This document shows positions 29,995-32,770 of a DNA stretch of 64,000 bases, piece after piece. The position numbers and the translations under genes are program-made. The first letter of the stretch is position 1. Every line of letters begins with the position of its first letter. This stretch comes from an uncultured Pseudomonadota bacterium (GTDB taxonomy: Bacteria > Pseudomonadota > Alphaproteobacteria > RF32 > CAG-239): NCBI GenBank assembly GCA_949292335.1, contig CASEYY010000021.1:2455-66454 (forward strand), read 5' to 3'. The notes beneath the pieces were generated by a model that searched no databases, was not told the origin of the DNA, and saw nothing but the letters and a program-made list of their open reading frames with translations.

Positions 29995-30984
29995 ATGAGA
30001 CTAATAAAAAAAGAACGTAAGCCTGATGGTCGCAGAAATATTTATATTTTAGGAAAGAGGATAATAAGCTACAAAACAAAAAAGAAGACAAGTGTAGCTT
30101 ATTTATATGAGCAAAGATTTAACGAAAATTTTTCTACAGAAGATAAATTGACCATACTTGAAACATTTCTGGGGGATCATGTAGGGTATAAACCCAATAT
30201 ATTACATCCGCGTACATTTAATGAAAAAATACAATGGTGTAAATTATTTGATAAGAATCCGCTTAGAACCATTTGTTCTGACAAATATTTGGTTCGAGAT
30301 TATGTTGCTGAGAAGATAGGTGAAAAATATCTTGTACCATTACTTGGAGTCTATGATAGTCCAGAGGAAATAGATTTTGACAAATTGCCAAATCAGTTCG
30401 CGATGAAGATAAATTGGGGTTCAGGCCAGAACATTATAGTAAAGGATAAAAAACAATTAGACATAGCGGCCGCCAAGAAGCAATTATCAGAATGGATGAA
30501 ACCACATTCGAATCTTTATTATAAATTTTTAGAATATGATTACAAAAATATTGTCCCCAAGATAGTTATAGAAAAATATCTGGAGACGGTTGATAAGTCA
30601 GCATTGGACTACAAATTTTTATGTTTCGGCGGTAAACCATATTTTTGCTGGGTAAGCAATAAATATAAGGAAGTGCAAGAGCGTAGTTTTTATGATATGG
30701 ACTGGAATATGCTTGACCTCGAATTAGTTGAGGAACACAAGGTAAAAGCAAAAGAACCGCTTCCCAAGCCTGATAATTTTGATGAGATGGTCAAATTGGC
30801 AGAAAAATTATGCCAAGATTTTGCTCATGTTAGGGTTGATTTATACAATTTGCCTGGCGGTGAAATAAAATTCGGAGAGCTGACATTGAATTCAGCTTCT
30901 GGCTTTAGTCCATGGTCGCCTGAATCGTTTGATTTTAAAATGGGTGAATTATTTGATATTAGTAAGATCAAAAAGGTAATATAA
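29995..30984 (+). CDS. TupA-like ATP-grasp amidoligase
   Basis: HPRTFNEKIQWCKL...YLVRDYV...DYKFLCFGGKPYFCWV...RVDLY...GELT pattern of the ATPgrasp_TupA family. GGAGA RBS. Confidence 0.8.
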   Translation: MRLIKKERKPDGRRNIYILGKRIISYKTKKKTSVAYLYEQRFNENFSTEDKLTILETFLGDHVGYKPNILHPRTFNEKIQWCKLFDKNPLRTICSDKYLVRDYVAEKIGEKYLVPLLGVYDSPEEIDFDKLPNQFAMKINWGSGQNIIVKDKKQLDIAAAKKQLSEWMKPHSNLYYKFLEYDYKNIVPKIVIEKYLETVDKSALDYKFLCFGGKPYFCWVSNKYKEVQERSFYDMDWNMLDLELVEEHKVKAKEPLPKPDNFDEMVKLAEKLCQDFAHVRVDLYNLPGGEIKFGELTLNSASGFSPWSPESFDFKMGELFDISKIKKVI

Positions 30985-30985
30985 A

Positions 30986-32770
30986 ATGCATAACAATTTT
31001 GTAAAAAGTTACATTAATAAAATAAAACCATACAATGTTTGTTCTCATAAAATATGGACACTAAGTGATGATGAGAAGAAGAAATCGCTTAAACTGGATT
31101 GGAATGAAGCGACGATTCCGCCTTCGCCTTATGTGGAAAAAGCAGTAAAGGAGCTTGTTGACAAAGCAGATTTTTATAATCTTTATCCGTCCTGTGAGAA
31201 CAAAAAATTATTAGAAAAACTGTCTGAATACCTAGATATTCCGACCGAAAACATACAATATTTTTCATCATCAGATAGTCTGCACGAATATATAGCCAGA
31301 ACATATTTGGGCGTCGGAGACAATGTCGTAATACAAGGTCCCTCGTATGATAATTTTCGTTTAACCGCGGAGACCAGCGGAGCACATATAATTTTCAGTG
31401 AAGTAGATGATGATTTTAAATTCAATGCCCAAAAGTTCGAAGCAGACATAAAGAAAAGTAATCCGAAATTGGTATATATAGTTAATCCCAATAATCCGGT
31501 AGGTTACTGTCATAGCAAGAAGTATATTGAGCATTTAGTGTCAAAATTTCCCAAGATATTATTTTTGCTAGACGAGGCATATGCAGAATTCTCCGGTGTT
31601 ACATGTAAGGAGTTAGTATTAAAATATCGGAACATATTAATTACCCGCACCATGTCAAAAGCATTTGCATTGGCCAATTTCCGTATTGGGTACTTAATTT
31701 CATCAAAAGATAACATACAAGCTATTTCTAAGATAAGAAATCCCAAAAACATAACGACCATAAATCAAACAGCGGCAATAGCGGCATTATCGGATATAGC
31801 CTATATGCAATCATATGTGTCAGAGGTTAAAAAAGCAAAGGCGGCATTTATATCAGGTTTAAAAAAATATCAAAAAGATATAACCGTTTATCCAAGTGAA
31901 TCCAATTTTTTGATAATGAAATTTAACAGTGAACTAAAAAAGCAAGATATGTATCGTTGGCTAGATAAACACAACATATATGTTCGTATGCTCAGCCAAA
32001 GTCCCAAAGTTTATAACTGTTTGCGTATAACAATAGGTACAACCGAGCAAATGCAAAAAGTTTTAGATATTATAGGGAGTTATTTTGAACAATTTGATAA
32101 TGAAAAAGTTGCACTATTTGATTTTTGCGATACTTGCATAAGTTTTCAAACGGCAGAGGCATATATAAAGTATGTAAGGAAATCCACCAAAAATCGCAAA
32201 ATGAAACTTAAAGAAAAACTTCGTAAGGTTTTGTATAAGTATGGGATAACAAGATTTTTAGAAAAACATACACACAAAACAGTAAACAAATTACTCAATA
32301 TCTGGCAATTAAAAGGATTTAGTAAAGCGGAGTTAGAGGGTCTTGCCGCAAAGTTTTATGAGGATAAATTAAAACCAGGTTTTGTAAAAGAAACCATAGA
32401 TGAAATGCTCAAATTAAAACGACAGGGATATAAAATCTATATTGTAAGCGGAGGCTATGATATATATATCAAGGAGTTTATTAAAGATTTTGACCTTGAT
32501 GGTTTCTTTTCAACAAAAATTGCTTTTAAAAATGGTATTGCAACGGGCGGTTTTGACGGATTAGATTGTATGAATGAAAATAAAATCAAGCTAATGCTAG
32601 AGTTTTTTCATCACGATCTGAAAAAAATTGACTCTATTGCATATTCTGACAGCATAACAGATTTACCATTATTACAATTTTGCAATAAGGCAGTTGTTAT
32701 CAGTCAAAATGTATCAAAAGACTGGGCCGCTAAGTACGGATTTCGAGAGATTATATACAAGCAAAACTAA
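30986..32770 (+). CDS. fusion protein: HisC/CobD-like class I/II PLP enzyme (about aa 1-365) + HAD-IB phosphatase-like domain (about aa 366-594)
   Basis: N-terminal part: LKLDWNEATIPPSP...NPNNPVGY...TMSKAFALANFRIGY (PLP Lys). C-terminal part: ALFDFCDTC...IVSGGYD...AYSDSITDLPLL (HAD-IB pattern). Confidence 0.8.
   Translation: MHNNFVKSYINKIKPYNVCSHKIWTLSDDEKKKSLKLDWNEATIPPSPYVEKAVKELVDKADFYNLYPSCENKKLLEKLSEYLDIPTENIQYFSSSDSLHEYIARTYLGVGDNVVIQGPSYDNFRLTAETSGAHIIFSEVDDDFKFNAQKFEADIKKSNPKLVYIVNPNNPVGYCHSKKYIEHLVSKFPKILFLLDEAYAEFSGVTCKELVLKYRNILITRTMSKAFALANFRIGYLISSKDNIQAISKIRNPKNITTINQTAAIAALSDIAYMQSYVSEVKKAKAAFISGLKKYQKDITVYPSESNFLIMKFNSELKKQDMYRWLDKHNIYVRMLSQSPKVYNCLRITIGTTEQMQKVLDIIGSYFEQFDNEKVALFDFCDTCISFQTAEAYIKYVRKSTKNRKMKLKEKLRKVLYKYGITRFLEKHTHKTVNKLLNIWQLKGFSKAELEGLAAKFYEDKLKPGFVKETIDEMLKLKRQGYKIYIVSGGYDIYIKEFIKDFDLDGFFSTKIAFKNGIATGGFDGLDCMNENKIKLMLEFFHHDLKKIDSIAYSDSITDLPLLQFCNKAVVISQNVSKDWAAKYGFREIIYKQN

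Follow-up and report, generated by a model that had tools for sequence, protein, structure and literature searches.

A compact, fused gene module predicted to amidate glucuronic acid in a variable glycan locus of an uncultured alphaproteobacterium

The glucuronamide pathway has been shown experimentally in Campylobacter jejuni HS:2 and HS:19, where Ugd (Cj1441) is the source of UDP-glucuronic acid (UDP-GlcA), Cj1437 converts dihydroxyacetone phosphate (DHAP) to (S)-serinol phosphate, and the C-terminal domain of Cj1438 (Cj1438C) is a TupA-like ATP-grasp amidoligase; the next glycosyltransferase needs the dephosphorylated amide, and HS:19 follows the same pathway logic with the serinol amide only (PMC11800379, PMC12409886, PMC13276843). 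The phosphate is taken off the phosphorylated amide by Cj1435, a phosphatase of the haloacid dehalogenase (HAD) subfamily IB (PMC12409886). An earlier note on the DNA treated here had described the HS:2 pathway in a form that agrees with these three papers, and had predicted a uronic acid amidation module from two adjacent genes. These genes are located in a stretch of 64,000 nucleotides, hereafter the window, from contig CASEYY010000021.1 of an uncultured alphaproteobacterium, and encode an ATP-grasp protein and a protein in which a pyridoxal phosphate (PLP) enzyme is fused to a HAD phosphatase domain. As judged from their sequences they are most likely a compact, fused member of the known C. 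jejuni-type glucuronamide pathway, and their function is probably the serinol-type amidation of GlcA. The two genes and the domains of the second are positioned as follows.

29995 to 30984, plus strand: predicted TupA-like ATP-grasp amidoligase of the Cj1438C type, 329 residues
30986 to 32770, plus strand: PLP-HAD fusion protein, 594 residues
30986 to 32095, plus strand: PLP domain, residues 1–370, predicted Cj1437-type transaminase, with the Schiff-base lysine K225 at 31658–31660
32096 to 32770, plus strand: HAD-IB phosphatase domain, residues 371–594, predicted Cj1435-type, with motif I (D379-F-C-D-T383) at 32120–32134

The open reading frame (ORF) of the ATP-grasp protein ends with TAA and is followed, after a single base, by the ATG of the fusion gene, and the ORF list and the sequence thus agree with the layout given before. 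The domain families that had been proposed are all found with hidden Markov models. In Pfam, the ATP-grasp protein matches PF14305 (ATPgrasp_TupA, E 1.3e-46, residues 77–320), the N-terminal part of the 594-residue protein matches PF00155 (Aminotran_1_2, E 1.4e-50, residues 35–363) and its C-terminal part PF12710 (HAD, E 1.4e-19, residues 376–564). In NCBIfam, the HAD domain scores 107.9–111 bits with the HAD-IB model TIGR01490, above the cutoff of 98.3, and the protein scores 265.3 bits with the hisC model TIGR01141, 11 bits below the cutoff of 276.55. A CobD-type decarboxylase was ruled out as an identity for the PLP domain, the score with TIGR01140 being 129.8 bits and far below the cutoff of 290.55, and a phosphoserine phosphatase was likewise ruled out by model scores. 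A sequence search of the PDB with the ATP-grasp protein gave no meaningful match.

For the comparison with C. jejuni the Cj1438 and Cj1435 sequences were taken from the supplements of the papers and the gene string Cj1438-Cj1437-Cj1436-Cj1435 from a C. jejuni contig (L007/L008), and the frame of Cj1437, which is interrupted at a G10 tract in the C. jejuni contigs, was rebuilt with G9. The ATP-grasp protein is 27% identical to Cj1438C across the whole domain (E 7e-29), the HAD domain is 29% identical to Cj1435 over its full length (E 3e-23), and the PLP domain is 44% identical to Cj1437 (231 bits, E 8e-76, pairwise) and 22% identical to the Cj1436 decarboxylase (83 bits). The stretch LKLDWNEATIPPSPYV is identical in the PLP domain and Cj1437, and ALFDFC[D/E]T opens both the HAD domain and Cj1435, so that in motif I of both proteins Cys replaces the second Asp of the canonical DxDxT (DFCxT). 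The three special activities of the C. jejuni toolkit, which had been said to be present in compact form, thus each have a homologue in the window. There is a single PLP domain and no L-serine-phosphate decarboxylase of the Cj1436 type among the ORFs in 21073–35902, and the ethanolamine branch is therefore missing. The G10 homopolymer in Cj1437 lies near 2430–2440 in L007 and at 2313–2322 in L008, and G9 restores the frame; phase variation is reported for Cj1437 (PMC8437040), which the G10/G9 tract fits.

The predicted catalytic residues are conserved in all three domains. In the ATP-grasp protein E77, D96, K97, K138, E193, K207, R280, D282, E295 and T297 (window numbering) are invariant among 22 module-linked homologues including Cj1438C. 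An alignment of 30 proteins that contain the PLP-HAD fusion shows no variation at the PLP lysine K225 or at D379, C381, T383, S488, K533 and D559 of the HAD domain, and D555 is nearly invariant (at least 90%). The DFCxT motif is present in 45 of 45 checked proteins with the fusion and in 76 of 82 relatives of Cj1435. It constitutes a subfamily signature in which Cys occupies Asp+2, the position of the general acid/base (32120–32134 in the window; Cj1435 is located at 3773–4408 in L008).

The relationship of the PLP domain to histidinol-phosphate aminotransferase (HisC) was followed in a genome scan with one genome per GTDB species, using as query the alignment of the 30 PLP-HAD fusion proteins. 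The matches listed, to which the counts of loci and taxa in this and the following paragraphs refer and among which the species of the window is not found, fall in two sharply separate tiers. The first constitutes 23 loci (L009–L031) with 42–62% identity to the PLP domain in the window, from Gastranaerophilales/Melainabacteria, Bacteroidales, Flavobacterium, Chitinophaga, Lachnospiraceae/Dorea, Elusimicrobia, Treponema and Photobacterium, and the second 57 loci (L032–L088) with 34% identity or less, from various taxa including Actinomycetota, Myxococcota, Gemmatimonadota, Succinivibrionaceae, Clostridium and archaea. A TupA ATP-grasp gene is adjacent in 19 of the 23 loci in tier 1 and in none of the 57 in tier 2 (Fisher p = 8e-15), and three of the tier-1 loci without it are contig-edge cases; a Cj1435-type HAD gene is located nearby in 20 of 23 and 0 of 57 respectively. 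The opposite is true for other his genes in the flanks, for which the genes of the E. coli his operon served as probes, and which are found at none of the tier-1 loci but at 56 of the 57 tier-2 loci (Fisher p = 4e-19). The association between the PLP and ATP-grasp genes is not due to chance.

A neighbour-joining (NJ) tree, calculated with Kimura-type distances (not maximum likelihood) on a subset of the HisC sequences, has the same split. The PLP domain in the window, its tier-1 relatives and Cj1437 are separated from his-operon HisC, E. coli HisC and Cj1436 in 99 of 100 bootstrap replicates, and the clade of the window domain contains Cj1437 and 24 relatives from glycan loci. A grouping with genuine HisC, named in the earlier note as the outcome that would speak against the module, is therefore not what is found. 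Genuine HisC is at most 34% identical to the domain, and among PDB entries the highest score of a genuine HisC is only 141 bits. With TIGR01141 Cj1437 scores 246.8 bits, P0058 from Parabacteroides 262 bits and E. coli HisC 423 bits, and as judged from these scores a value just under the threshold of 276.55 is typical of the Cj1437 clade. No his genes are present among the window ORFs scanned. The Parabacteroides goldsteinii protein P0058 carries the HisC name in NCBI and nr, and the marks that set Cj1437-type enzymes apart from genuine HisC are the sub-threshold hisC score, the N-terminal signature LDWNEATIPPSP, a neighbouring HAD gene with the DFCxT motif and a neighbouring TupA ATP-grasp gene.

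By homology to C. jejuni the following pathway can be proposed. Ugd would make UDP-GlcA, and a glycosyltransferase of the locus would put GlcA onto the growing glycan. The N-terminal PLP domain should convert DHAP and L-glutamate to (S)-serinol phosphate, the stand-alone ATP-grasp protein with MgATP would form the amide between the C6 carboxylate of GlcA and serinol phosphate, and the C-terminal HAD-IB domain should strip the phosphate; the serinol glucuronamide left behind would be neutral and could be extended by the next glycosyltransferase. Serinol is predicted since the PLP domain appears to be a DHAP transaminase of the Cj1437 type, and the amine is for the same reason (44% identity, same clade) probably not the new one that had been thought possible. 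The product is most likely GlcA amidated with serinol, on a glycan of the lipopolysaccharide (LPS) type, where serinol itself is held somewhat less firmly than the amidation function. The substrates (DHAP, serinol phosphate and GlcA), the step order and the type of glycan are those that we infer from sequence and context.

The fusion had been taken as Rosetta-stone evidence that the transaminase and phosphatase steps belong to one pathway, and the argument is strengthened by the variants, as separate genes, PLP-HAD fusions, an ATP-grasp-PLP fusion and a triple fusion are all found. Separate neighbouring genes are present in the capsule locus of the Parabacteroides goldsteinii type in the order ugd, PLP, HAD, ATP-grasp; the order is PLP, HAD, ATP-grasp in Bacteroidota, and HAD, ATP-grasp, PLP in Firmicutes and Elusimicrobia. 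PLP-HAD fusions constitute at least 45 clusters at 90% identity, collapsing to two representatives at 50%, and the ATP-grasp-PLP fusion is P0350. Only P0002 (925 residues) combines ATP-grasp, PLP and HAD in one protein, and its gene is located beside an FkbM methyltransferase, epimerases and ugd. The gene pair in the window is collinear with P0002 over the junction, which reads ...KKVI-stop-MHNNFVKSYINKIKPY in the window and ...KKHKKNNNKYLNSFLKNIKPY in P0002.

Other arrangements of the same domains were seen. P0003–P0006 (about 905 residues) and the L021 ORF at 9074–11803 were first candidates for ATP-grasp triple fusions and were rejected by alignment, which shows a different N-terminal domain; this domain of about 310 residues precedes the PLP-HAD unit, has no Pfam match and contains DADVF (DxD-like) in its consensus, and may be a glycosyltransferase of the GT-A type. 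In L021 a separate ATP-grasp gene follows the gene for the protein of about 905 residues, at 11791–12702. In P0044 (1012 residues) and P0045 (750 residues) a radical SAM / 4Fe-4S domain is fused to the PLP-HAD unit on its C-terminal side. P0335 (851 residues) and P0338, P0347, P0372 and P0387 (about 800–840 residues) carry a Cj1437-like PLP domain (34–42% identity) at the C-terminus; the N-terminus is TagF-like (Glyphos_transf) in one of them and has no Pfam match in the others, a possible sign that phosphodiester-linked polymers, too, make use of serinol phosphate or a similar amine phosphate. The PLP-HAD-ATP-grasp cassette of L025, a contig of 4.4 kb labelled as a Bifidobacterium breve metagenome-assembled genome (MAG), clusters tightly in the tree with those of Flavobacterium (L010 and L024), and the contig is probably mis-binned.

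The surrounding glycan locus (21073–35902) begins just past a tRNA-Val gene (20683–20758) and ends at recG, and has a GC content of about 32%, compared with 40–43% in the flanks. Besides the two genes described above it contains the following features.

21073 to 22371, plus strand: ugd, predicted UDP-glucose 6-dehydrogenase, conserved locus head, three UDPG_MGDP_dh Pfam domains
22387 to 23388, minus strand: GT2 glycosyltransferase (PF00535), conserved head
23513 to 24514, plus strand: GT2 glycosyltransferase (PF00535), conserved head
24514 to 34007, no strand: strain-specific insertion of 9,494 bp, from blastn against L090
24566 to 25909, plus strand: WbsX-family glycosyltransferase (PF14307)
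25899 to 26804, plus strand: GT2 glycosyltransferase (PF00535)
26884 to 27768, plus strand: RgpF C-terminal-like protein (PF05045)
27781 to 28953, plus strand: GT4 glycosyltransferase (PF00534)
28953 to 29981, plus strand: FkbM-family methyltransferase (PF05050; TIGR01444, 95 bits)
32810 to 33991, minus strand: WbsX (PF14307), inside the insertion
33995 to 34948, minus strand: GT8 glycosyltransferase (PF01501), conserved tail
34952 to 35902, minus strand: GT2-like gene (PF00535), conserved tail

In the sister strain L090, with a Lon protein 97% identical to that of the window, blastn aligns window positions 20833–24513 and 34008–39000 with only 34 bp between them, and L090 has no genes between head and tail and no amidation module. 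The insertion contains, in order, WbsX, GT2, RgpF-like, GT4, FkbM, ATP-grasp, PLP-HAD and WbsX genes. L092 and L094 (Lon 96% identical) share window positions 24597–27733 and continue with dTDP-sugar, FdtA and GT10 genes. The head segment with the two GT2 genes has 83–89% DNA identity to sister strains and the tail 90% to L090; the locus is hypervariable between the conserved head (ugd-GT2-GT2) and the conserved tail (GT8-GT2-like) among three strains with 96–100% identical Lon. The absence of the module from a sister strain with 97% identical Lon indicates that it is dispensable, and it is probably an accessory decoration acquired horizontally; its closest relatives are of the Melainabacteria type, with 60–62% identity in the PLP domain and 56% in the ATP-grasp protein. 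The two GT2 genes of the head (22387–24514) are candidates for the GlcA or backbone transferases. The RgpF-like ORFs match positions 272–503 only of the RgpF model, with a fragment of 99 residues in L092 (18468–18767), and the ORFs in the window (26884–27768) and L092 may be truncated or remodelled genes.

The window Ugd scores 463 bits with TIGR03026, and its best equivalog in NCBIfam is TuaD (491 bits), the TuaD and AglM models scoring far above the UDP-ManNAc and the TviB/UDP-GlcNAc dehydrogenase models. The gene at the locus head, from which UDP-GlcA had been expected, is thus present and TuaD-like, but it is no specific evidence for amidation, since L090 and L092, two sister strains without the module, have kept it as well. 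Retention of ugd in such strains indicates that it serves the base glycan and not the module specifically, and that the shared part of the glycan probably contains GlcA. Elsewhere, a Ugd of at least 40% identity is encoded within 10 kb of the module in L001, L004, L009, L011, L021 and L030. An FkbM homologue is also found near the module in the two lineages closest to that of the window, L001 (7970–9055, 35% identity) and L009 (12258–13181, 32%); in the window the gene directly precedes the module, and in L001 it is located about 1 kb upstream. The FkbM methyltransferase may, from this linkage, be an accessory of the module, and might methylate serinol or the uronic acid.

The assignment of the host to Alphaproteobacteria is based on relatives of its Lon protein with 84–86% identity, which come from named alphaproteobacterial MAGs. 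Outside the locus the window encodes LpxK, WaaA, the transferase of 3-deoxy-D-manno-oct-2-ulosonic acid (Kdo), and an outer-membrane beta-barrel protein, indicating that the host has LPS. Beside lpxK and waaA, at 9112–12318, there are PMT_2 (ArnT-like), GT2 and YdjC-family genes that are conserved in sister strains, and that we take to resemble Bordetella LgmABC and Francisella FlmF2/NaxD/FlmK. Those systems add glucosamine or galactosamine to lipid A phosphates. At 57278–58894, between fatty-acid synthesis genes and a DsbD-like gene, the window encodes a protein of 538 residues with a phage-lysozyme domain at residues 287–412.

Several findings weigh against a C. jejuni-type pathway making the serinol amide of GlcA. 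The identity to the C. jejuni enzymes is moderate (27–44%), and the substrate specificity could therefore differ. The retention of ugd in sister strains makes its position at the locus head non-specific, and a Ugd is encoded within 10 kb in only about a quarter of the related loci. No Pfam match to the Wzx, Wzy or ABC exporter families was found among the locus ORFs of at least 100 residues or the other window ORFs scanned, which leaves the kind of glycan uncertain. In addition, the two fused domains would catalyse the first and the third step, leaving room for another step order.

This last point leads to the possible but unlikely alternative that the same enzymes and the same ligation operate with another amine or in another order. 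The PLP domain would then aminate some keto-phosphate that is not DHAP, so that another amino alcohol or an amino acid amide results, or serinol phosphate would be dephosphorylated first and free serinol ligated afterwards. The identity to Cj1437 is just 40–44%, FkbM accompanies the module in the window, L001 and L009, which may point to an additional modification, and fused enzymes often act consecutively; on the other side, the PLP domain is placed in a well-supported clade with Cj1437 (99 of 100 replicates), and most of the relatives have three separate genes like C. jejuni. The HAD domain has also kept the unusual DFCxT motif, as in Cj1435, whose substrate is the phosphorylated amide (PMC12409886). 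Such a rewired pathway, with a free amino alcohol as the ligated amine, or with a non-serinol amine that is perhaps O-methylated by FkbM, is unlikely; if true, it would give the LPS of a gut alphaproteobacterium a kind of uronamide decoration that has not been described before.

It is more doubtful still that the amidoligase targets a carboxylate other than that of GlcA, such as galacturonic acid, an N-acetyl-hexosaminuronic acid, or the Kdo of the neighbouring LPS core. The locus adjoins waaA and lpxK, in most related loci no close Ugd is encoded within 10 kb, some contain other genes resembling nucleoside diphosphate (NDP)-sugar dehydrogenases with about 27% identity, and a role of TupA-like ATP-grasp ligases in decorating various surface polymers has been reported (PMC13419641). 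Against this stand the TuaD-like Ugd at the locus head, with scores much higher for UDP-glucose than for UDP-ManNAc or UDP-GlcNAc dehydrogenase models, the lack of any uronate 4-epimerase among the locus ORFs, and the fact that both characterised relatives act on GlcA.

That the 594-residue protein should instead be a bifunctional histidinol-phosphate aminotransferase and histidinol phosphatase, with the ATP-grasp gene as a coincidental neighbour, is very improbable: with TIGR01141 the protein scores 265, just 11 bits short of the cutoff, HAD-IB includes histidinol phosphatases and aminotransferases fused to other HAD types exist (P0438, P0460 and P0472), but Cj1437, a proven DHAP transaminase, is also below the hisC threshold (247 bits, compared with 423 for E. 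coli HisC), the weak match to NF052360 (54.6 bits; Cj1435 has 68.1) is far under the cutoff of 280, the three other fusions use HAD_2 or PNK3P-type domains and are only 34–36% identical, the domain is split from his-operon HisC in 99 of 100 replicates, his genes are located near 0 of 23 close and 56 of 57 distant relatives, and the gene itself is part of a low-GC insertion that a sister strain with 97% identity in Lon does not have.

Amidation of GlcA takes away negative charge from a surface polysaccharide, and in C. jejuni it is required for the polymerisation step that follows. The C. jejuni toolkit recurs in Bacteroidales (Parabacteroides, Alistipes and Phocaeicola), Melainabacteria, Lachnospiraceae, Elusimicrobia and the alphaproteobacterium of the window, and this recurrence across gut lineages predicts that serinol-type uronamides are common but unrecognised in commensal capsules and LPS. 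For the enzymatic synthesis of amidated glycans, the single-polypeptide forms could be handy reagents. Among the literature searched, only the Raushel papers and a Klebsiella CfmP paper were found on serinol uronamides in O-antigens and on PF14305, and no published description of the gut-lineage cassettes of PLP, HAD-IB and TupA ATP-grasp genes was found.

Among known systems, HisC (TIGR01141) shares fold-type I and the class I/II aminotransferase family with the window PLP domain, and the Cj1437 clade is its sister group. The substrates of both are phosphorylated and have a three-carbon backbone, predicted in the case of the window, and they differ in the identity of at most 34%, the sub-threshold model score, the lack of his-operon context and the separate clade (99 of 100). 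TupA-like ATP-grasp amino-acid ligases of surface polysaccharides, such as TupA of B. halodurans and WemR of Proteus, are described in PMC13419641 and reportedly by Iyer et al. in 2009. They have PF14305 in common with the window protein, and in both cases a carboxylate-amine ligation on a cell-surface polymer is predicted; the TupA and WemR ligases are thought to attach amino acids directly and no need for a PLP enzyme or phosphatase is reported, and it is by these descriptions that they are set apart.

The cassettes of other gut lineages are located in capsule loci of Bacteroidales (P. goldsteinii-type L004–L006 and Alistipes L011), Flavobacterium, Lachnospiraceae and Elusimicrobia, with fused forms in Gastranaerophilales/Melainabacteria (L001, L009 and L021), and share with the window orthologous PLP (48–62%), HAD (32–52%) and ATP-grasp (32–56%) proteins, often with a Ugd nearby. 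Unlike the fusion in the window they mostly consist of three separate genes, and one lineage fuses all three. The C. jejuni HS:2 and HS:19 systems have the same four enzyme families within one glycan locus, and HS:2 has the DFCxT motif, membership of the Cj1437 clade and the conserved ATP-grasp catalytic residues in common with the window. The transaminase and phosphatase are one protein of 594 residues in the window but separate genes in C. jejuni, and the ATP-grasp enzyme is a stand-alone protein of 329 residues in the window but the C-terminus of a GT2 polymerase (Cj1438) in C. jejuni. The Cj1436-type decarboxylase of HS:2 is not found in the window locus and is optional, as HS:19 has the serinol amide only, and the poly-G phase-variation tract of Cj1437 is absent from the window gene. 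Unlike the C. jejuni capsule locus, that of the window belongs to an alphaproteobacterial MAG, is located beside lipid A and Kdo genes with no capsule export genes seen, and has its module as part of a strain-specific insertion of 9.5 kb. The fused architecture, the host and the breadth across gut phyla are new, whereas the chemistry is already known from C. jejuni.

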